Under the pieces are notes generated by a model, which saw only the letters and a program-made list of their open reading frames with translations, was not told the DNA's origin and ran no database searches. A program made the position numbers and the translations under genes. 64,000 nucleotides of DNA, taken from NCBI RefSeq assembly GCF_054482595.1, contig NZ_CM137008.1. One strand, given 5' to 3'. Below are positions 5,212 through 55,775 of the stretch, one piece after another; positions within the stretch are counted from its first letter, which is position 1, and each line of letters starts with the position of its first letter.

Positions 5212-5534
5212 TCACCTTAACCTACTCATACGAAGCGGACGAGGATAAAATCCTTTCATTTTCCGTTCGCTTCATTATTTTATTTTCTTTCCAATGCCCA
5301 TTCAAATTAAAAATATAATTCTGCCATAATTTCCTGAACACAGATGTAATTACATTGCCACCTCTCATACTTCCATATGACTAGTCGTCCTATTGGGGCG
5401 TGATAGATGTATTAATTTCCAAATATGCAAACATTCTGATACAGTCCCAAAAAGAAAATTATTACCAACCCAGACAATCAGCAAATAAATTAATAACAAT
5501 TGAATTATAATCAACACGAATACAAGAGATTAAC

Positions 5535-7385
5535 ATGGCAACAATAATCCCAACAATCAGTAGCTGCAACGATAAAATTACTGCCGGAGAGAAAAGGCTG
5601 GCAAGAATTCTGGAAAGAGGACTAGGCGAAGAGTGCTGCTGTTGGTATGACATTCCCACGGGTGATAAGCATCTTCACCCAGATTTTATGATACTTTCGC
5701 CAGAAAAAGGCATTATTTTTCTCGAGGTAAAAGATTGGTTTATTACAAAAATAAAAAAAGCCAACAAGTCTAATGTTTTGTATGAGACACAAAATGGCAT
5801 TCAATCTTTAAAGAATCCGATAGAACAAGTTAGGCGATATGCTTTCGAAGCTGTAAACCAGTTAAAAAAAGACCCCCTATTGTGCCAACAGGAAGATCGT
5901 TACAATGGCAATCTTCTTTTCCCCTATGGATATGGCGTCTACTTTAGTAATATTACACGAGAAGCATTAAATAATAAATTTACTCAAGAAGAGCTGCTCG
6001 GGATCTTCCCATCAGATCTTATCATCTGCAAAGACGAACTAAATGAATTCATGTCAAAAGGGGATGTTTCATCCAAAATACATTCGTTGATTAAATATGA
6101 CTTCAAATGTCATGCTACACAAGAACAGTTGAACAGGATTAGATGGCACTTATACCCCGATGTCAGAATAGAAAGGGAAAAGAGAAGTAAAAACTGTGAT
6201 GAATTTAGTGTCGATGCACCAACCATCATTTCTATCCTGGATACTCAACAGGAACAACTTGCCAGAAGTATGAGAGACGGCCACCGAATAATTCATGGTG
6301 TTGCAGGTTCAGGTAAGACATTGATCCTCTATCATCGCTGTCAGGAATTAGCGAAAAAAAATGACAGCGAAAAGCCAATACTTGTCATTTGCTACAATAT
6401 TACTTTAGCCAAAAAACTTCGGTCGATGTTCATCAATCATCCCTTTGAAGAGAAAATAAAGGTTAATAATTTTCATGCTTGGTGTTTCCAACAAATTAAA
6501 AAAAACAAGATCACCATTCCAGAAGGGGATAATATTTTTGAAAATATGGAGCAAGCGTTGACTGATGGTTTCAACACAGGAAAAATAAAACCAGAACAAT
6601 ACAGCGCTGTATTAATTGATGAAGGACATGATTTTAAGCCCGAATGGTTAAAAATCCTGGCAAAAATGACTGACTCTCAGGACGAGAATTTGCTATTTCT
6701 TTATGATGATGCTCAGTCAATTTATCAAAAAAAGAAAGCATTAGACTTTACACTGTCCAGCGTGGATATTAAAGCGACAGGACGCACAACTATTCTTAAT
6801 ATAAATTATAGAAACACACAACAAATTCTACACTTTGCCAGTTGCATTGCATTTAATTATCTTAATAGCCATATCGATAGTTCTTTAACCTATCATAAAC
6901 CTGCTGCGGGAGGAATGAATGGCGATTATCCCAAGCTTGAACATTTCGACACACAGGACGAAGAAATAGCAAGAGCAGTCAAATGGATTACAGAGCAAAA
7001 TGAACAAGGGATTCCGTGGTCTGAAATTGCTATACTTAGTCCTTCAACTCACATCCTTTCTAACTCTCTAAGTTCTGTACTTGAATCGAAAAATATCCCC
7101 TTTAATCTTATTGTAAGCTCTGCAGATAAAAAGTCCTGGACGCCAGAACAAGAGCGTATTTCTGTTATGCCATTACCCAGCAGCAAAGGACTTGAGTTTC
7201 ACTCAGTTGTCATTATTGATGCAGCGAGAACACGGGATAATAGTGATGATTTGAGTGAGGATATAAAGAGACTCTATGTAGGTTTTACCCGAGCACGTTG
7301 CAATCTCTTGGTAACCTTGCACGGTGAAGGTGCGTTAAATGAGCATCTACTAAGAACCTATAAGCAAAGCCCACAATATATGTAA
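5535..7385 (+). CDS. NERD-domain / SF1 (UvrD-like) helicase fusion protein, 616 aa; candidate single-gene nuclease-helicase defence protein
   Basis: N-terminal NERD-like motif (GEKRLARILERGL ... HPDFMILSPEKGIIFLEVKDW). Helicase motifs: Walker A HGVAGSGKT, motif II VLIDEGHDF, KGLEFHSVVI, and C-terminal LYVGFTRAR. The gene is strongly AT-rich. Confidence 0.7.
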   Translation: MATIIPTISSCNDKITAGEKRLARILERGLGEECCCWYDIPTGDKHLHPDFMILSPEKGIIFLEVKDWFITKIKKANKSNVLYETQNGIQSLKNPIEQVRRYAFEAVNQLKKDPLLCQQEDRYNGNLLFPYGYGVYFSNITREALNNKFTQEELLGIFPSDLIICKDELNEFMSKGDVSSKIHSLIKYDFKCHATQEQLNRIRWHLYPDVRIEREKRSKNCDEFSVDAPTIISILDTQQEQLARSMRDGHRIIHGVAGSGKTLILYHRCQELAKKNDSEKPILVICYNITLAKKLRSMFINHPFEEKIKVNNFHAWCFQQIKKNKITIPEGDNIFENMEQALTDGFNTGKIKPEQYSAVLIDEGHDFKPEWLKILAKMTDSQDENLLFLYDDAQSIYQKKKALDFTLSSVDIKATGRTTILNINYRNTQQILHFASCIAFNYLNSHIDSSLTYHKPAAGGMNGDYPKLEHFDTQDEEIARAVKWITEQNEQGIPWSEIAILSPSTHILSNSLSSVLESKNIPFNLIVSSADKKSWTPEQERISVMPLPSSKGLEFHSVVIIDAARTRDNSDDLSEDIKRLYVGFTRARCNLLVTLHGEGALNEHLLRTYKQSPQYM

Positions 7386-7403
7386 AAATGATAAATTATC
7401 TCC

Positions 7404-7437
7404 ATAACGCCCGGTAACGCTGTACCGGGCGTTATGA
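7404..7437 (+). terminator. Perfect 14-bp inverted repeat hairpin downstream of the NERD-helicase gene
   Basis: cataacgcccggta-acgctg-taccgggcgttatg read directly; no strong T-run follows. Confidence 0.4.
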
Positions 7438-7626
7438 ATGCATATCTAAGATATTAGTCACGCATGATAGCCGCCACCAAAAACACCATCATCTCCCTCG
7501 CCTCTTTGCGGTGATAAAAGCGTACCATTTTGCTGTTAAATTCCAGCGTTTTAGCCGCTGGAATTAACAAGATCAAACTTCCGGCAACGAAGATTCAGTT
7601 ATTACAAATAATTACTGGAAAAAGAG

Positions 7627-7824
7627 ATGAAAAGCGTGGTTGACAACACATCGAAATATCCTGACTGGAGTAAACGCGATGATATTAAAGCGAAACTGAA
7701 AGTTGAACTTATTCTGCTTCTACACAAGCATAAGTTCCCGCCAGTAGCGAATGATGATGTTTATATGGGTGTGCTGGCACAGGTAGAGAATTTTAAAGAA
7801 CATCATATGAGTGCTTTAAATTAA
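7627..7824 (+). pseudogene. 65-aa ORF, possible C-terminal remnant of a displaced restriction-system gene (hypothesis only)
   Basis: Short ORF upstream of symE in the position occupied by hsd genes in K-12. The motif KRDDIKAKLKVELILLLHKHKFPPV resembles my recollection of type I HsdR C-terminal tails. Unverified. Confidence 0.25.
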
Positions 7825-7943
7825 TCATGAAGGCTGGATACACTTTGTTATCCGGCCATTGTGAATTAATGTTAATTTTTCTTCCAAATCTTTCCAATAA
7901 CGCTTTTATTATTTTCTATTTTTAGCTGGACTTTCCCTGTATT

Positions 7944-7963
7944 TACTGATGATATATCCAGAT
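7944..7963 (+). promoter_or_regulatory. LexA (SOS) box-like CTG-N10-CAG element upstream of symE
   Basis: TACTGATGATATATCCAGAT read directly about 78 bp upstream of the symE ATG; symE is a known SOS-induced gene. Confidence 0.5.
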
Positions 7964-7984
7964 ATTTAGCGCGGTGCGGATGTG

Positions 7985-8065
7985 CGCCAACACACCCGCA
8001 CCGCTCATCACAATCACTATTTTCAAGGAATAGCAGTTATGACTGACACGCATTCTATTGCACAA
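7985..8065 (-). ncRNA. symR: Expected position of SymR antisense sRNA (type I antitoxin) overlapping the symE 5' end; approximate coordinates
   Basis: Placed from the known symE/SymR arrangement, not from detected promoter or terminator signals. A 9-bp inverted repeat GCGGTGCGG/CCGCACCGC lies at 7971-8004. Confidence 0.3.
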
Positions 8066-8380
8066 CCGTTCGAAGCAGAAGTCTCCCCGGCAAATAACCG
8101 TCAATTAACCGTGAGTTATGCGAGCCGCTACCCGGATTGCAGCCGTATTCCCGCCATCACCCTGAAAGGTCAGTGGCTGGAAGCCGCCGGTTTTGCCACC
8201 GGCACAGCGGTAGATGTCAAAGTGATGGAAGGCTGTATTGTCCTCACAGCCCAACCACCCGCCGCCGAAGAGAGCGAACTGATGCAGTCGCTGCGCCAGG
8301 TGTGCAAGCTGTCGGCGCGTAAACAAAAGCAGATACAGGAATTTATTGGGGTGATTGCGGGTAAACAAAAAGTTGCCTGA
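8039..8380 (+). CDS. symE: SOS-induced toxin SymE (type I toxin-antitoxin), 113 aa
   Basis: Internal ATG at 8039 of ORF 7982-8380 gives [33 protein letters not shown]..., matching SymE. Confidence 0.85.
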
Positions 8381-8388
8381 TACATTGA

Positions 8389-8419
8389 CCCGGTAGCACC
8401 AGTGCTACCGGGTATTATT
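8389..8419 (+). terminator. Hairpin plus T-rich tail between convergent symE and the GmrSD-like gene
   Basis: cccggtagca-ccag-tgctaccggg followed by tattatt, read directly. Confidence 0.5.
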
Positions 8420-8426
8420 CGCCGCG

Positions 8427-10520
8427 TTATACCAACGCGCTCTCCATCTGTTTTTCAAATGCCTGACGAATTAATCCCATAATGTAAGGAAGTTGTGCGA
8501 GGTCGCTGAAACAAATTTCCACATCACCATTGCCCCATCGCCCAACATTTGTCACATCTTTGGCAATACCTTTCGGATCGACCAGTTCATGAAACTGCAT
8601 ATTAAGCGACAATCGCAGTCGGCTTTTTTGCGGCACAACATCAACAAAATTCGTTTCAGCTTTAAACGCAATATATAGCTTCAATACTTCCTGCGTGATC
8701 CCTGCGTCCAGGCGCATAACTTCATCGCGAAGATGATCGAATAACACCCGGCTATGCGAACCATCAGCAAGAAAAGGATAATCACTCAGGCTGTAACTGG
8801 TTTTGTTTTCAGGCTGCCCCCGATAAACAGCTAAAACCTCTTCAGAAAGAGAAGGCGCTTGCCAGACCTGAATCGCGAGATCGGCCAGACGATCGGCTCG
8901 GGCGTGAATGGCGGCTTCATCCCATTTTTCGCACTGTCCAAGACCGATATTCAAATAGAGCGGGCTATGCTTAAAGCCGTCTTCAATATCGCGTTTTTCC
9001 GCGAAAGGTCTGTCACTGTAGCGGGAGTTATAGCGCGTTAATGTGAGATTCCCCAACGTATGCAACAGTTCTTTATGAATGCGTTGCCAGTCACTTCCCA
9101 GCTCTTCACGCCATTTAGCCGACAAATTTTCGTTCTGCGGCATAATATGCTCAATCGTAAACTCTTCCACGCGCTCTCTGCGTTTATCGTTTTCCAGTCG
9201 TCGTAACCAGTAGCTGCGACTACGGAAGTTATAGAGATCGCGAACTTTTAATTCCCGTTTAAATTCATCATCGTTGGGGAAACGACGATATGAAGGTAGA
9301 TTCAAAAAATGTACCTGAATACTTTCCAGATAATTTTCTTTATTAATAACTTTATAAAAAGTGGCAAATGTCTTGTTCAAAGAATTTGTCGGAATTGCAC
9401 ATACTGCACGGCGGAAAACATAAGATTCAATTAAACGAATTATGCTCAGAAAATCTTCGTGAGACAAAACGCCATTTTTATAGTCATGATAAAGCGCCAG
9501 TAAGAAAGGATACGCCACATCGACCTTTAACTCGCGCAAATCCTGAAAAGCCGTAGCAAGCGATTTGTCACTTTCTTTTCCCAATGCCATTGCACAGTAA
9601 TACTCCGCGTAGATATGAATATCTTCAACCAGCCGATCTACGCCTTTTTCAGCAACACTCTGGCTGCGGGCATGGAGTTTAAATGCCTCATAGACTTCAT
9701 CTGTCCGAGGGATCTCCCCCGTTTTTACCGTCAGATAATGACGCATAAAACTGTCAAAATATTCGCTGTAACCTTGCTGACCAAAGGCGACTTCCATTGG
9801 ACGCCAGTGATCTTCATACAATCGGGTTTGATGCTCTGGTTCGAGGCCCATCAGAATAAAATTGCGCACCAGATCGGCCTGACTTAACGCCTTACCGGTG
9901 GAGTTCATACTTTCAAAAATCAGTTGCGGATTATCCTGACCACGATTAAGCGCCACATCGACAATTAATAACTTTGCTAACCCACGACATAAGGGGATCA
10001 AGTCATCACCGAGTTTGGCAATTTGTTCATCAAAGAAAGTAAAGTTTTCCATTATTCGATGGGAATAGTTTTCTGGCATTGGTCTTTGTTTTATTAACGC
10101 CAGTAAACTGTCTTTATCAGTCTCGGTCAGCAGTAATTTAAAACCTTTCTCGCCGGACTCATAAGGATTGAGCAAATAATAATTACGCAATTTCATTGCC
10201 GAAAAGCCATCAAAAACTTCGTCTTCGCCAAGATGGCGCGATAAAGCCTCAATCAGCAACATTGCGGTCGTCAGCCGCTGCTGACCATCAATGACCAGCA
10301 ACGGAGAAATACCAGAAACCTGATACAATCCCTGCTCTATATAAACAACCGAACCGATAAAATGCGCTGATATATCGTCACGCTTTCCTGCACGAATGAT
10401 GTCGTCCCAAAGTTGCCGACATTGTTGTTCTGTCCATGAATAAGTCCGTTGATAAATGGGAATAACAAACTGCTGCGAACGTTTTAAAAAATCGAGTAAG
10501 CGAGCTTCTGTAGCTTTCAT
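8427..10520 (-). CDS. DUF262 + DUF1524 (GmrSD-family) putative Type IV modification-dependent restriction endonuclease, 697 aa
   Basis: N-terminal DUF262/ParB-like motifs IPIYQRTYSW and VIDGQQRLTT. C-terminal His-Me finger/DUF1524-like motifs FTIEHIMPQ, GNLTL and YNS. Confidence 0.7.
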   Translation of the reverse strand: MKATEARLLDFLKRSQQFVIPIYQRTYSWTEQQCRQLWDDIIRAGKRDDISAHFIGSVVYIEQGLYQVSGISPLLVIDGQQRLTTAMLLIEALSRHLGEDEVFDGFSAMKLRNYYLLNPYESGEKGFKLLLTETDKDSLLALIKQRPMPENYSHRIMENFTFFDEQIAKLGDDLIPLCRGLAKLLIVDVALNRGQDNPQLIFESMNSTGKALSQADLVRNFILMGLEPEHQTRLYEDHWRPMEVAFGQQGYSEYFDSFMRHYLTVKTGEIPRTDEVYEAFKLHARSQSVAEKGVDRLVEDIHIYAEYYCAMALGKESDKSLATAFQDLRELKVDVAYPFLLALYHDYKNGVLSHEDFLSIIRLIESYVFRRAVCAIPTNSLNKTFATFYKVINKENYLESIQVHFLNLPSYRRFPNDDEFKRELKVRDLYNFRSRSYWLRRLENDKRRERVEEFTIEHIMPQNENLSAKWREELGSDWQRIHKELLHTLGNLTLTRYNSRYSDRPFAEKRDIEDGFKHSPLYLNIGLGQCEKWDEAAIHARADRLADLAIQVWQAPSLSEEVLAVYRGQPENKTSYSLSDYPFLADGSHSRVLFDHLRDEVMRLDAGITQEVLKLYIAFKAETNFVDVVPQKSRLRLSLNMQFHELVDPKGIAKDVTNVGRWGNGDVEICFSDLAQLPYIMGLIRQAFEKQMESALV

Positions 10521-10616
10521 TCTGACGTCTTTCCGTGAAACGATGATTTCGCAATAATAACCACTTCCTTGTGGAGGTTATAGAGAAATCCTGTTTATCC
10601 GCGACGAACATACCCC

Positions 10617-10781
10617 TCACTCCACATCCTCCCTGCGTAACCCAATATCCCTCAACCGCTCATCACTCATCTGCTGTAACACTCGTCGGGTCTGCATTTG
10701 CCGCCGCCAACGCCTCACCGCCTGCCAGAGTTGCACAAGTCTGATAAACGGCGTTTTGGCTTTGTTTTCGTGAAATTCCAT
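10617..10781 (-). CDS. yjiS: DUF1127 small protein YjiS (54 aa), missed by the ORF track (below size cutoff)
   Basis: Minus-strand translation MEFHENKAKTPFIRLVQLWQAVRRWRRQMQTRRVLQQMSDERLRDIGLRREDVE, with GAGGAGG SD 5 nt upstream of the ATG at 10781. Confidence 0.7.
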   Translation of the reverse strand: MEFHENKAKTPFIRLVQLWQAVRRWRRQMQTRRVLQQMSDERLRDIGLRREDVE

Positions 10782-10957
10782 CTGCTGCCTCCTCATCTTT
10801 CAGAGGCTTCATCATCCGTCTTCTGGCAGTTCACAATACAGATGCAAATATTAGTTTTATTTAACATACAGACAGGTTAAAACAGCATCTGCATCCGGTT
10901 TTTTAGCCTCATCTGTACCGGTTTTTCTTTCTGTATGGTCCAAATAAGGAATACAGC

Positions 10958-12370
10958 ATGACGCGTTATCAACATCTGGCAACTCTGCTTGCCGAGCGGA
11001 TTGAGCAAGGGCTGTATCGTCACGGGGAGAAATTGCCGTCGGTGCGCAGCTTAAGTCAGGAGCACGGCGTCAGCATCAGCACCGTGCAGCAGGCGTATCA
11101 GACGCTGGAGACGATGAAGCTCATCACTCCGCAGCCGCGTTCGGGGTATTTTGTCGCACAACGTAAAGCCCAGCCGCCAGTGCCGCCGATGACGCGTCCG
11201 GTGCAGCGCCCGGTGGAAATTACCCAGTGGGATCAGGTACTGGATATGCTGGAGGCGCATAGCGACAGTTCCATTGTTCCGTTAAGCAAAAGCACGCCGG
11301 ATGTCGAAACGCCCAGCCTGAAACCGCTGTGGCGTGAGCTAAGCCGGGTGGTGCAGCATAATCTGCAAACCGTTCTCGGTTATGACTTGTTAGCCGGTCA
11401 GCGGGTATTGCGAGAGCAGATTGCCCGCCTGATGCTCGACAGCGGCTCGGTGGTCACCGCCGATGACATCATCATCACCAGCGGCTGCCATAACTCGATG
11501 TCGCTGGCGTTAATGGCGGTGTGTAAACCGGGCGATATTGTCGCGGTCGAATCTCCCTGTTATTACGGTTCGATGCAGATGCTGCGCGGCATGGGCGTGA
11601 AAGTGATTGAAATCCCAACCGATCCAGAAACTGGCATCAGCGTTGAAGCGCTGGAACTGGCGCTGGAACAGTGGCCGATTAAAGGCATCATTCTGGTGCC
11701 AAACTGTAATAATCCGCTGGGATTTATTATGCCGGACGCGCGCAAACGGGCCGTTCTCTCTCTCGCTCAGCGTCATGATATTGTGATTTTTGAAGATGAT
11801 GTCTACGGCGAACTGGCAACGGAGTATCCGCGCCCGCGGACCATTCATTCCTGGGATATCGACGGGCGAGTGCTGTTGTGCAGCTCGTTCAGTAAAAGTA
11901 TTGCTCCAGGCCTGCGCGTGGGTTGGGTCGCACCGGGGCGTTATCACGATAAACTGCTGCATATGAAATACGCCATCAGCAGCTTTAATGTGCCGTCCAC
12001 GCAAATGGCGGCGGCAACGTTTGTGCTGGAAGGTCACTATCATCGCCATATCCGGCGGATGCGGCAGATCTATCAGCGCAATTTGGCGCTTTATACCTGC
12101 TGGATACGGGAATATTTTCCCTGCGAAATCTGTATTACGCGCCCGAAAGGCGGATTTTTACTGTGGATAGAATTGCCTGAACAGGTCGATATGGTCTGCG
12201 TCGCGCGGCAGCTGTACCGCATGAAAATCCAGGTGGCGGCAGGCTCGATTTTCTCGGCTTCCGGCAAATACCGTAATTGTCTGCGCATCAACTGCGCTTT
12301 GCCGCTCAGCGAAACCTATCGCGAAGCACTGAAGCAAATTGGCGAGGCCGTGTATCGGGCAATAGAATAA
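10958..12370 (+). CDS. yjiR: MocR/GntR-family transcriptional regulator with PLP-dependent aminotransferase-like domain, 470 aa
   Basis: N-terminal GntR-type winged HTH (LPSVRSLSQEHGVSISTVQQAYQTLE) followed by an aminotransferase class I/II-like domain. Confidence 0.85.
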   Translation: MTRYQHLATLLAERIEQGLYRHGEKLPSVRSLSQEHGVSISTVQQAYQTLETMKLITPQPRSGYFVAQRKAQPPVPPMTRPVQRPVEITQWDQVLDMLEAHSDSSIVPLSKSTPDVETPSLKPLWRELSRVVQHNLQTVLGYDLLAGQRVLREQIARLMLDSGSVVTADDIIITSGCHNSMSLALMAVCKPGDIVAVESPCYYGSMQMLRGMGVKVIEIPTDPETGISVEALELALEQWPIKGIILVPNCNNPLGFIMPDARKRAVLSLAQRHDIVIFEDDVYGELATEYPRPRTIHSWDIDGRVLLCSSFSKSIAPGLRVGWVAPGRYHDKLLHMKYAISSFNVPSTQMAAATFVLEGHYHRHIRRMRQIYQRNLALYTCWIREYFPCEICITRPKGGFLLWIELPEQVDMVCVARQLYRMKIQVAAGSIFSASGKYRNCLRINCALPLSETYREALKQIGEAVYRAIE

Positions 12371-12487
12371 TTTCGAATTAGTGGCGAGGCCCCTGATTTC
12401 CTCTCACGAATCGCCTGTGACTCGTTTTATCTTTGCAGGGGCATCGCCACGTTCCAGCATGGCTTAGGCAAAGTGTGCTTTGTTCAT

Positions 12488-12518
12488 ACCGGATGCGGCG
12501 TGAACGCCTTATCCGGCT
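12488..12518. repeat. REP element (ccggatgcggcgtgaacgccttatccgg)
   Basis: Imperfect palindrome of the canonical E. coli REP type; a near-identical copy is at 36431-36465. Confidence 0.6.
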
Positions 12519-12554
12519 TACAAATCGCGCAAATTCAATAGATTGCAGAGGTAA

Positions 12555-12585
12555 TGTAGGTCTGATAAGCGTAGCACATCAGGCA
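12555..12585. repeat. REP element (tgtaggtctgataagcgtagcacatcaggca), second member of a BIME-like pair
   Basis: REP-type palindrome adjacent to the previous one between convergent yjiR and rpnD. Confidence 0.5.
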
Positions 12586-12611
12586 GCTTTGCGTTTGTCA
12601 TCAGTCTCTGA

Positions 12612-13556
12612 TTAGTACTCGATCCATGGATCGCGCTTGCTTTCAGGCAAGGGTTGCTCTAATGCCTGCATTTGCTCTGCCGAAAGTCCAGTATATCGTT
12701 GTATCCATTCAGGATCCGCACCGTTCTGCAAAAGCAATCTAAGGAGGCGTTGTTCCCCTTCTTCTTTCCCCTTTTCCATCCCTAACAGCCATCCATCATT
12801 ATGAATTCGCTCTGCAATCGTCATTATTCGCTCCCTGTGTTGTGGCATTCGACGGGTAAGTTCACTGATAAACTCATTAAAACGCGCTTCATCGCCAGTC
12901 AGTAAAATGTAATTTAACAGCGCGGTTATCTGGCTGTCATTAGCGCACCCTGTAACCAGTAATATTACCAGTTGATCAATAAGCCCCATTAGATCGCGCT
13001 GGCGAATATGCTTTTGGATCAACTCCAACAGGGCGACTCTGCGGTGCTGCACAATCTCGTCGTCTGGCACGACAGTGACATCCACCAGCGGGAACGCTGC
13101 AGTATAAACTTTCCGTGCAGTAGTCGGGTCGGCAAATTCGTCCAGCCAGCACAGGGACCAGGGATAAGGACTACGGCTACCGTGATAAAACAGCATCGGG
13201 ATGACCAGCGGTAGCAACCGGCGTTTATCATGCTCTATATGGCGCTGCATCACTGCCATGGTATAGCGCATCAGGCGAAAGGCCATATGAATATCCTCAC
13301 GGCTCTGATGTTCAATCACCACATAGATATAGCCATCGCCTTCCCGGGTCTTTACCGACCACAGAATATCGGAGTGTAGCGCCCGCAATTTTTCATCGAC
13401 AAAGCTGGCGGATTCCAGTTTTAAGCTGTCGAGATCGCACAGTTCACGTAAATCTTTGGGTAAGTGGATCTCCATAAAATCCCGCGCGGTGTCAGGGTGC
13501 ATGAGAAAAGATTTAAATAATGCGTCATGCGGCGTGCTGGTCGTGAAGTTTGTCAT
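12612..13556 (-). CDS. rpnD: Rpn-family recombination-promoting nuclease (YhgA-like PD-(D/E)XK), 314 aa, apparently intact
   Basis: [36 protein letters not shown]... is typical of the Rpn/YhgA family; single uninterrupted ORF. Confidence 0.75.
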
Positions 13557-14022
13557 GGCGATCCGTCACCTGTTGATAAGATGGCCCGACTTTAGCGACT
13601 AACAAAACCATTCTCACCCGGCAATTTCCCGTTCCCCGAGGCGCTTTCCAGGCTATTTTTGTTCGTCTGCAAACGATACATTTTTCCGGAAACAGGCTCG
13701 CGTTTTACATTTCCTGTACCCGGCAGATATTCCCCTTTCCACCGCGCTCTTTTGATTAACCGCAAATTTTAATTACACTTAAGGTGTATATTTTCTATGC
13801 AACCCATCAATTCAAGAGGTGTAATGTACTGATGACTATTTGTAATCGTTATACATTCTGACCCGAAGTCAGAAGGTATTTCTCTGTCTGTGTGTTCACA
13901 GGCAGTGTGGTTGATTACATGAAATTCAGTACATTTGTCCTTCTCGCCTGCCTTTCGTCATTACCGACGGTATTGAATTTCGTTTTCCCCGTTGGGGTTC
14001 TCCGGACAAGGAGTTGTTTGTT

Positions 14023-15255
14023 ATGCCACGTTTTTTTGCCCGCCATGCCGCCACGCTGTTTTTCCCGATGGCGTTGATTTTGTATGACTTTGCCGCCTAT
14101 CTTTCGACGGACCTGATCCAGCCAGGGATCATTAATGTGGTCCGTGATTTTAATGCCGATGTCAGTCTGGCCCCGGCTGCCGTCAGTCTCTATCTCGCTG
14201 GAGGCATGGCATTGCAGTGGCTGCTGGGGCCGCTTTCCGACAGGATTGGCCGCAGGCCAGTGCTGATTACCGGGGCGCTCATTTTTACCCTTGCCTGCGC
14301 CGCGACAATGTTCACAACGTCTATGACACAGTTTCTTATCGCGCGTGCAATTCAGGGCACCAGTATCTGTTTTATTGCTACCGTTGGTTATGTCACGGTG
14401 CAGGAGGCGTTCGGACAGACAAAAGGGATCAAGTTGATGGCGATTATCACCTCCATCGTACTGATTGCGCCGATTATTGGCCCGCTTTCCGGCGCAGCTC
14501 TGATGCACTTTGTGCACTGGAAAGTCCTTTTTGCCATCATTGCGGTTATGGGTTTTATCTCATTTGTTGGCTTACTGCTGGCGATGCCAGAGACGGTGAA
14601 GCGCGGCGCGGTTCCATTTAGCGCCAAAAGCGTCTTGCGCGATTTTCGTAATGTCTTTTGCAATCGGCTGTTCCTCTTTGGCGCAGCAACCATCTCTTTA
14701 AGCTATATCCCAATGATGAGTTGGGTGGCTGTCTCGCCGGTGATCCTGATTGACGCAGGCGGCTTAACGACCTCGCAGTTCGCCTGGACACAGGTTCCGG
14801 TGTTCGGCGCGGTGATTGTCGCGAATGCCATCGTGGCGCGTTTCGTTAAAGATCCGACCGAACCGCGCTTTATCTGGCGTGCCGTACCCATTCAACTGGT
14901 TGGCCTCGCGCTGTTGATTATCGGCAATCTGCTGTCACCGCACGTCTGGCTGTGGTCGGTGCTGGGCACCAGTTTGTATGCTTTCGGGATTGGTTTGATC
15001 TTCCCGACCTTATTCCGCTTTACGCTTTTTTCCAATAACTTACCGAAAGGGACCGTCTCCGCATCGCTGAATATGGTGATCCTGATGGTGATGTCTGTCT
15101 CGGTCGAAATCGGCCGCTGGCTGTGGTTTAACGGCGGTCGCTTGCCGTTTCATCTGTTAGCCGTCGTGGCGGGCGTTATCGTCGTTTTCACCCTGGCAGG
15201 ATTGCTCAATCGCGTGCGCCAACATCAGGCTGCCGAGCTGGCGGAGGAGCGGTGA
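14023..15255 (+). CDS. mdtM: MFS multidrug efflux transporter MdtM, 410 aa
   Basis: 12-TM MFS-like protein. Start is taken at the ATG at 14023, preceded by GGAG; the ORF track used an upstream TTG. Confidence 0.9.
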
Positions 15256-33591: not shown

Positions 33592-33976
33592 CATTCTCAA
33601 GCGTCGCACTGCGCCAACCGCCATTATCCCAGACCAGATCAAACGTTAGCGGTTCATCGTCGTGGTACAGCATTATCTCAAGGCTGATCGCCAGCGTGTG
33701 GCAGTACGCTTCTTTCAAATTAACCTGCAACGCCGCAATCCGTGGCTCATGAAATAACAGTGCAGAACGCAGCTGACGGCAATACCAGCTCTGGAGATGT
33801 TTGTCGCTCTGGTTATGCAGTTGCCACTCGGGCATGCCTGAAACAAGTAATGACGGTAATGCCGAATGAGGAGAATTAAAAAGTGTGAGGAGATCGCTGC
33901 ATACCGATTTACGCAGCGATGACGTTTTATTGCCTGAAATTTCAGGTAAAACAGCCTGAAGTGATTGGCGCATCAT
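33584..33976 (-). CDS. iraD: Anti-adaptor protein IraD (RssB inhibitor), 130 aa
   Basis: Translation from the internal ATG: [23 protein letters not shown]...; its 3' end overlaps the hypT 3' end by 8 bp (convergent). Confidence 0.8.
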
Positions 33977-34648
33977 TTTGCGCACTCCTGACGTTTAGCA
34001 ACATATGCGGCTTGCCCTGAACACCGGGCACCACTGTATTGATGCTCATTTTCCATAGCCATTCCCTTTTGTTCATTACATCCATGTCAGTCTGAGACAG
34101 GCCTGAATCCTGTCAGCAAAGTATAAAACCTTACTTGCCTATGAATATCTACTGACTTTTCAGGAAAAAAGTCATGATTTGATAAAAATCATCAAACTCA
34201 AAAAAAAACCGCTAGTATATTCTGAATATTCCGAATAGTTACGTAGATGAAAATACTTGTCACCGCTGCTACTTAATTCCGGTGGGAAATTATTTATTTC
34301 CGCATAATCATCTATGTATTATTTGAAACAATTAGTTTGTAAATAATATAAATTAATAACATATCAAATACATCAAAAATACCATTCACAGGCATTATTA
34401 ATATAGACCTCAACATAGCAACATCAAATTCCAATTAGTAATAAGATATGCTTTTAAATTGCATGCAAATAATTTTAAATGAGCGTTTTTTGATACTTTA
34501 GAGTGTTTCCCACCCTTTAATATCACTGTGTAGAGTTGATATCACTACAACAGAAACATGCATGTCATTTGTTTACTTCTCTTTTTACTACAGAAAAATT
34601 TATCTATTTTTCTAAACATCAGTGAAATACTCATAAAAGGTAACTATT

Positions 34649-54640: not shown

Positions 54641-55621
54641 ATGGACGCAATAATATCGCCCGATTATTACTATGTTCTTACCGTTGCTGGTCAGTCTAAT
54701 GCCATGGCGTATGGCGAAGGACTGCCATTACCGGACAGGGAAGATGCGCCTCATCCCAGAATTAAACAATTAGCGAGATTTGCGCATACGCATCCCGGAG
54801 GCCCGTCATGTCACTTTAACGACATTATTCCACTGACTCACTGCCCACACGATGTTCAGGATATGCAGGGTTATCACCATCCTCTGGCAACGAATCATCA
54901 AACACAGTACGGCACCATTGGCCAGGCACTGCATATTGCACGGAAATTACTGCCCTTTATTCCTGATAACGCAGGGGTTCTCATCGTTCCATGTTGCCGT
55001 GGCGGATCGGCTTTTACCGCGGGCAGCGAGGGGACATATTCAGAACGGCACGGAGCCAGCCATGATGCTTGTCGTTGGGGAACGGATACTCCGCTATACC
55101 AGGATTTAGTCAGCAGAACGCGAGCCGCATTGGCAAAAAATCCGCAGAACAAATTCCTCGGCGTATGCTGGATGCAAGGCGAATTTGACTTAATGACCAG
55201 TGACTACGCGTCACACCCTCAACACTTTAATCATATGGTTGAAGCCTTTCGTAGGGATCTAAAACAATACCATTCTCAGCTTAATAATATTACTGATGCG
55301 CCCTGGTTCTGCGGCGATACCACCTGGTACTGGAAAGAAAATTTCCCTCATGCGTATGAAGCTATTTATGGCAATTATCAAAATAATATTTTAGCTAATA
55401 TTATTTTCGTCGACTTCCAGCAACAAGGTGCAAGAGGACTGACGAACGCGCCTGATGAAGATCCGGACGATTTAAGCACGGGATATTACGGTTCAGCGTA
55501 CCGGTCACCGGAGAACTGGACGACGGCACTGCGAAGCAGTCATTTCAGCGCGGCAGCCCGTCGGGGGATTATTTCTGACAAGTTTGTAGAAGCAATTTTG
55601 CAGTTTTGGCGCGAAAGGTGA
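54641..55621 (+). CDS. nanS: 9-O-acetyl-N-acetylneuraminate esterase NanS, 326 aa
   Basis: Sequence recognised (YjhS/NanS). Confidence 0.8.
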   Translation: MDAIISPDYYYVLTVAGQSNAMAYGEGLPLPDREDAPHPRIKQLARFAHTHPGGPSCHFNDIIPLTHCPHDVQDMQGYHHPLATNHQTQYGTIGQALHIARKLLPFIPDNAGVLIVPCCRGGSAFTAGSEGTYSERHGASHDACRWGTDTPLYQDLVSRTRAALAKNPQNKFLGVCWMQGEFDLMTSDYASHPQHFNHMVEAFRRDLKQYHSQLNNITDAPWFCGDTTWYWKENFPHAYEAIYGNYQNNILANIIFVDFQQQGARGLTNAPDEDPDDLSTGYYGSAYRSPENWTTALRSSHFSAAARRGIISDKFVEAILQFWRER

Positions 55622-55775
55622 GCGTTCATTAATTTGATTTATTCGCATCCATCAGCGCTTTTAACTCCTCCGGCGTAAACGGTGGTTTGCGTAGGTGCAA
55701 CATCGCATGGCAATTAGGGCACACAGGCAGCAAAAAAACAAATGAGATCAAAGTAATATATCTTCACTTGCAGGC

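Follow-up and report, generated by a model that had tools for sequence, protein, structure and literature searches.

An intact Escherichia coli yjiS gene, encoding a small arginine-rich DUF1127 protein, next to the divergent regulator gene yjiR

E. coli has a single DUF1127 protein, YjiS (Remme et al. 2025, PMC12501420). In an E. coli yjiS mutant the pstS transcript is raised and phosphate uptake is faster, and an interaction of YjiS with the sensor kinase PhoR was detected by bacterial two-hybrid assay and far-Western blot, with a two-hybrid signal in one fusion orientation only (PMC12501420). The same domain occurs in SDP1-3 of Agrobacterium tumefaciens, where several DUF1127 paralogues are present in contrast to the single one of E. 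coli; on each side, the proteins bind the PhoR of their own organism. The homology between the Agrobacterium SDPs and E. coli YjiS is given as 24% (PMC12501420), and the MEFHEN N-terminus of YjiS is peculiar to the enterobacterial copies in the present alignment. E. coli YjiS nevertheless complements a triple DUF1127 mutant of Agrobacterium in its pstS phenotype (PMC12501420).

Venturini et al. 2025 (PMC11707872) used ribosome profiling and western blots to show that Salmonella translates a YjiS protein of 54 aa. On fractionation, this protein is found with the inner membrane, and SsrA/B co-purify with it (PMC11707872); its function survives single Arg or DIGL substitutions, the DIGL motif being described in the same study as a conserved feature of DUF1127 (PMC11707872). 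Salmonella yjiS is induced under SPI-2 conditions, possibly via SsrB, and affects escape from macrophages, a role that is not directly transferable to E. coli because this species lacks SPI-2 as well as SsrA/B. CcaF1 of Rhodobacter sphaeroides, likewise an arginine-rich DUF1127 protein, differs by its length of 71 aa, its co-transcription with an sRNA cluster and its documented RNA binding, none of which applies to the locus described here. A concept shared beyond the family, namely the adjustment of histidine-kinase output by a bound protein of less than 70 aa, is represented by MgrB and SafA, which act on PhoQ. Both, however, are inserted in the membrane and target the periplasmic domain, whereas YjiS has no transmembrane segment or significant amphipathic helix, and neither shows a sequence relationship to YjiS.

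In the window, i.e., the whole stretch of 64,000 nucleotides that was analysed, a first-pass annotation had proposed a 54-codon gene of DUF1127 type on the minus strand, with a GAGGAGG Shine-Dalgarno (SD) sequence and the name yjiS. The following features make up the gene and its immediate upstream region:

10617..10781, minus strand: yjiS coding sequence, ATG, 54 codons and TGA; DUF1127 protein (Pfam match, RefSeq CDS, purifying selection)
10788..10794, minus strand: Shine-Dalgarno sequence GAGGAGG of yjiS, with a 6-nt spacer (CAGCAG) before the ATG
10794..10796, minus strand: upstream in-frame ATG that gives a 59-aa ORF; probably not the start codon
10782..10957, no strand assigned: spacer of 176 bp between yjiR and yjiS, with six half-sites and the proposed yjiS promoter
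10958..12370, plus strand: yjiR, MocR-type, with a GntR helix-turn-helix and a class I/II aminotransferase-like domain (Pfam GntR and Aminotran_1_2)

Each element of the proposal was recovered. The minus-strand sequence reads ...AAAGATGAGGAGGCAGCAGATGGAATTTCAC..., and an uninterrupted frame occupies 10617..10781, with the start ATG at 10781-10779, the stop TGA at 10619-10617, and 54 sense codons between them. The SD sequence lies at 10794-10788, 6 nt ahead of the ATG, and a GGAGG or GGGGG core is kept at an equal distance from the ATG in all Escherichia and Citrobacter copies. The translation is MEFHENKAKTPFIRLVQLWQAVRRWRRQMQTRRVLQQMSDERLRDIGLRREDVE, a small and basic protein of 6.8 kDa with 11 Arg among its 54 residues (20%) and a calculated pI of 11.4. 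Assignment to the DUF1127 type is borne out by a match to Pfam PF06568 with 50.1 bits (E = 2.3e-13), well above the gathering cutoff of 23.3, which spans residues 18-54 of YjiS and positions 1-37 of the 37 in the model. The C-terminal motif of DIGL type is SDERLRDIGLRR (residues 39-50), with DIGL itself at 45-48, and D45, G47, L48, R49, and R50 are invariant among the 19 orthologues aligned. A scan of YjiS against NCBIfam yielded no family at E <= 0.01; the name in RefSeq derives from the Pfam domain only.

The name yjiS, too, agrees with the RefSeq and K-12 annotations, in both of which the gene is divergent from yjiR. When positions 10500-10960 were compared with the complete E. coli genomes by megablast, the locus of E. 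coli XH990 proved 100% identical, and its RefSeq record lists yjiS at the same coordinates as the frame described above, as a CDS for a DUF1127 domain-containing protein (WP_000394276.1). Window and XH990 are identical at every base up to position 19598; the first difference is a (GATAAA)n repeat in a pentapeptide-repeat gene (approximately 19575-19605), which has one unit more in the window. The K-12 protein (b4341, NP_418761.1) also has 54 aa, shares the SD sequence, start and locus, and is identical in 50 of 54 residues (93% over the full length), the substitutions from K-12 to the window being R7K, A10T, G14R, and K44R. At codon 14 (10740-10742) the window encodes Arg, in contrast to the Gly found in each of the 18 other aligned orthologues from Escherichia and Citrobacter. 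Within E. coli the window allele is common, with 830 genomes at least 99% identical to it in DNA. Thus, the 54-codon frame is a known, annotated and experimentally studied small-protein gene of E. coli, and its observation in the sequence is correct but ordinary; there is no novelty at the level of the gene, which has recently been characterised.

The first-pass annotation had staked its proposal on conservation of the reading frame in related genomes, and 54 codons, the ATG and the stop are indeed present in 20 of 20 copies, with dN/dS well below 1. These copies comprise the K-12 gene and 19 loci from a scan of one genome per species, which together with the window make 21 sequences; all 19 loci are labelled Escherichia or Citrobacter, except two mislabelled contigs from metagenome-assembled genomes (MAGs). 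These two, labelled Collinsella sp. (L003) and Bacillota bacterium (L004), encode a YjiS 100% identical to that of the window and also carry the GmrSD-like gene of the window with approximately 98% identity; they almost certainly represent E. coli contigs that were mis-binned. No Salmonella yjiS locus was recovered by the one-genome-per-species scan.

Variable columns are distributed over codon positions 1, 2 and 3 as 24, 16, and 47, and the frame is free of stops and indels in all 21 sequences. Of the other five frames at yjiS, four are interrupted by stops in all copies, and the fifth is interrupted in 20 of 21. Measured against the window by the Nei-Gojobori method, dN/dS ranges from 0.09 to 0.17 for the Citrobacter pairs with estimable dS, the remaining pairs being saturated, and from 0.2 to 0.4 (maximum 0.41) within Escherichia. 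Judged by these alignments, the YjiS protein is under clear purifying selection. The genomic context is stable on one side, as yjiR is the divergent neighbour in 16 of 16 complete Escherichia and Citrobacter loci. In summary of the observed state, the window carries an intact gene with a strong ribosome-binding site, under purifying selection and always paired with divergent yjiR.

Within E. coli, the 165-nt coding sequence was found in 4159 of 5426 complete genomes, in 3736 of them at full length. It is absent or truncated in approximately 30% of the complete genomes and therefore dispensable; approximately 1270 of them are without any yjiS, and approximately 420 retain only the 3' half. A single locus of this kind was inspected, that of strain S1-SRB-02-B (L022:4001-4093), where nucleotides 73-163 of yjiS remain with about 86% identity and are annotated as a hypothetical protein of 26 aa. 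There, mdtM and yjiR have been deleted along with the 5' half of yjiS, and a gene for an Rpn recombination-promoting nuclease adjoins the remnant.

On the downstream side, homology to K-12 ends 5 nt past the yjiS stop codon (10612-10617). The variable segment between yjiS and yjiA has been described as the immigration control region (ICR; PMC3874165), and yjiS marks its exact edge. Beyond this edge the DNA of the two strains is unrelated, with a GmrSD-like gene in the window and yjiT, yjiV and mcrBC in K-12, whereas the yjiR-side flank is collinear and the order of yjiR, 176 bp and yjiS is common to both. The ICR of the window strain is only approximately 5.4 kb long (about 5212-10616), lacks hsdRMS, mcrBC, and mrr, and contains a 3'-5' exonuclease gene, an hsdR remnant, symE/symR, and the GmrSD-like gene. 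Two of its features are located as follows:

8427-10520, minus strand: GmrSD-like ORF of 697 aa, intact, with GmrSD_N, GmrSD_C and DUF5655 domains
7968-8044, minus strand: symR antitoxin sRNA, antisense to symE at its 5' end (Rfam RF01809: 91.7 bits, gathering score 61)

In the RefSeq record of XH990 the identical 697-aa sequence is split into a DUF262 pseudogene and a separate CDS of 387 aa in spite of the absence of any stop or frameshift, a split that looks like an annotation artefact. The gap of 96 nt between yjiS and the GmrSD-like gene, folded as RNA, gave z = -0.30 and no terminator-like structure. In an Rfam scan of positions 7000-14500, the only match at yjiS was a snoRNA match of chance level (18.5 bits against a cutoff of 54). 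In the same part of the window, the stretch 12482-12563 between yjiR and the rpn gene gave sub-threshold Rfam matches to the REP-derived families naRNA4 and ES036 and is probably a REP element.

Taken together, the joint best explanation, to which we assign a probability of roughly 0.9, is that the frame is E. coli yjiS, a real and translated gene for an arginine-rich DUF1127 protein that modulates sensor kinases and is probably controlled by YjiR from the spacer. According to the mechanism proposed for the K-12 and Salmonella orthologues, YjiS would act by direct protein-protein contact with sensor kinases of the inner membrane. It would touch their cytoplasmic face and dampen their output, the kinase in E. 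coli being PhoR. Binding of PhoR by YjiS would restrain the Pho regulon in E. coli, as judged by the raised pstS expression and faster phosphate uptake of the yjiS mutant. The allele in the window may be expected to have the same activity as K-12 YjiS, since only 4 of 54 residues differ; PhoR binding and pst repression by this protein are assumed from the 93% identity to its K-12 counterpart, for which both were demonstrated (PMC12501420).

Structure prediction adds little detail to this picture. AlphaFold2, run on a shallow alignment of 19 orthologues, predicted, with moderate confidence, one long helix comprising residues 10-45 (pLDDT 72.5, pTM 0.36), and a sequence search of the PDB for a solved DUF1127 structure returned matches of chance level only (E >= 0.25). 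When YjiS was scanned for an amphipathic helix that could bind membranes, the highest-scoring segment reached a hydrophobic moment of 0.45, a value also attained by 1354 of 2000 shuffles. Since the hydrophobic moment does not exceed that of shuffled sequences, membrane association of YjiS finds no independent support in its sequence.

The kinase reading is weakened by the RNA binding of CcaF1, another DUF1127 protein. YjiS might correspondingly be mainly a small RNA-binding protein like Rhodobacter CcaF1 that affects RNA maturation or stability, and not sensor-kinase signalling. Both proteins share the Pfam domain, YjiS is very basic as judged by its arginine content and pI, and CcaF1 binds RNA yet complements the Agrobacterium phosphate phenotype, such that both activities may coexist (PMC8034643; PMC12501420). 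However, no evidence that YjiS binds RNA is reported in either the Salmonella or the E. coli work, and the partners described are mainly inner-membrane proteins. The YjiS proteins of enterobacteria furthermore form a clade separate from the alphaproteobacterial DUF1127 proteins. Unlike ccaF1, yjiS is not followed by an sRNA cluster, the only Rfam hit being symR at a distance of 2.6 kb. We regard a primary role in RNA binding as unlikely.

Far less credit is due to the idea that the frame is open by chance, or is what remains of a decaying gene at the margin of a variable island, and has no functional product. The gene is short, it sits exactly at the border of the hypervariable ICR, and it is reduced to its 3' half or missing altogether in the approximately 420 and 1270 genomes mentioned above, as might be expected from such a remnant. 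Against this stand a frame, length, start and stop that are kept even where synonymous divergence is saturating (dN/dS near 0.1), a Pfam domain match above the cutoff, and orthologues with published phenotypes and a detected protein. The DUF1127 match together with purifying selection contradicts the chance-ORF reading, to which we attach a practically negligible probability. As for the length of the product, a form of 59 residues could start at the upstream ATG at 10796, as this in-frame codon (10796-10794) is present in all Escherichia copies. It overlaps the SD sequence, however, and is without a ribosome-binding site of its own, and at the corresponding position 11 of 13 Citrobacter sequences have GGC, GGT, GAC, or GAG, the other two having an out-of-frame ATG nearby. 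The downstream ATG, its SD sequence and the MEFHEN N-terminus are, in contrast, invariant in the copies aligned, and 54 aa is the length annotated by RefSeq and in K-12 and likewise that of Salmonella YjiS. Because the upstream ATG overlaps the SD sequence and lacks an in-frame counterpart in Citrobacter, the 54-aa start is preferred and the longer form appears very improbable. The window YjiS, read as a kinase modulator of 54 residues, resembles Salmonella Typhimurium YjiS in its length, its 11 Arg, its DUF1127 domain and its DIGL motif.

Control of this small protein gene leads back to the 176-bp spacer, in which yjiS transcription presumably starts. Its elements are:

10951-10957, 10930-10936, 10912-10918, 10888-10894, 10866-10872 and 10836-10842: six half-sites resembling CTGTAT/ATACAG, from the spacer alignment
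10875-10880 (TTAACC) and 10854-10859 (TAAAAC): proposed yjiS promoter, based on a SELEX peak in the literature and two weak hexamers

In an alignment of the spacer from 12 Escherichia and Citrobacter genomes the six half-sites are invariant, while the intervening sequence drifts. The exact heptamer TCTGTAT occurs nine times in the 64-kb window, three of these within the 176 bp of the spacer. Regulators of the MocR type typically bind repeated half-sites in the spacer beside their own gene. YjiR is for this reason the obvious candidate for the half-site array, and it probably controls yjiS through these conserved CTGTAT elements, as far as the sequence lets us infer. The archetype of the MocR regulators is GabR (PMC6550539), and YjiR itself is catalogued among the transcription factors of unknown function (PMC9308461); a link between YjiR and yjiS was not found in the literature searched.

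With respect to the promoter, genomic SELEX placed a site of the RpoD holoenzyme in the K-12 spacer, and TTAACC-15-TAAAAG was proposed as the yjiS promoter (PMC3946193). The predicted -10 hexamer is TAAAAC in the window and TAAAAG in K-12, and one of the half-sites (10866-10872) falls between the two hexamers. A scan of positions 10300-11100 on both strands for consensus promoters and terminators revealed no strong sigma-70 site and no terminator; the promoter assignment consequently rests on the SELEX peak and the weak hexamers. We tentatively suggest, at somewhat less than even odds, that the half-site array is the YjiR operator and that an unknown metabolite, sensed by the aminotransferase-like domain, sets the level of YjiS and thereby the output of PhoR. 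If this were true, phosphate signalling would be tied to an amino-compound signal. The array is the one mildly new lead of this study and gives a concrete, inexpensive way to probe the role of the orphan regulator YjiR.

The main value of the yjiS case, aside from the small lead to YjiR, is a methodological point on size cut-offs in ORF listings. The program-made ORF list used a default minimum of 60 aa and a longest-ORF rule, by which the most upstream start is taken. In such a listing the yjiS frame extends over 10617..10796, from the in-frame ATG five codons upstream, and the resulting 59 aa stay below the threshold of 60 aa. The omission of yjiS by reason of its size, as supposed in the first-pass annotation, is thereby explained. 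The gene was missed by one residue, and this margin depends on the longest-ORF rule. At the same place the default list does contain an antisense ORF:

10698..10880, plus strand: antisense ORF of 60 aa with a TTG start, overlapping yjiS and its leader; present in the default list

This ORF is spurious, as the antisense frames have stops in most orthologues and are not conserved; a further antisense ORF at 10571..10744 was dismissed on the same grounds of conservation. A cut-off of 60 aa thus hides a real, conserved and functionally studied gene by a single residue, yet lists a meaningless antisense ORF at the same position.

The need to seek genes of less than 60 aa separately, also put forward at the outset, extends to other parts of the window, for which RefSeq lists four more such CDSs; a copy of ytiE adds to these:

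33973-34056, 34172-34315, 34312-34416 and 55540-55629, all on the minus strand: idlP, ytiD and two hypothetical CDSs (27, 47, 34, and 29 aa), from the matching RefSeq record
13826-13861, plus strand: copy of K-12 ytiE (11 aa), upstream of mdtM, in which the GTG start of K-12 is replaced by GTA
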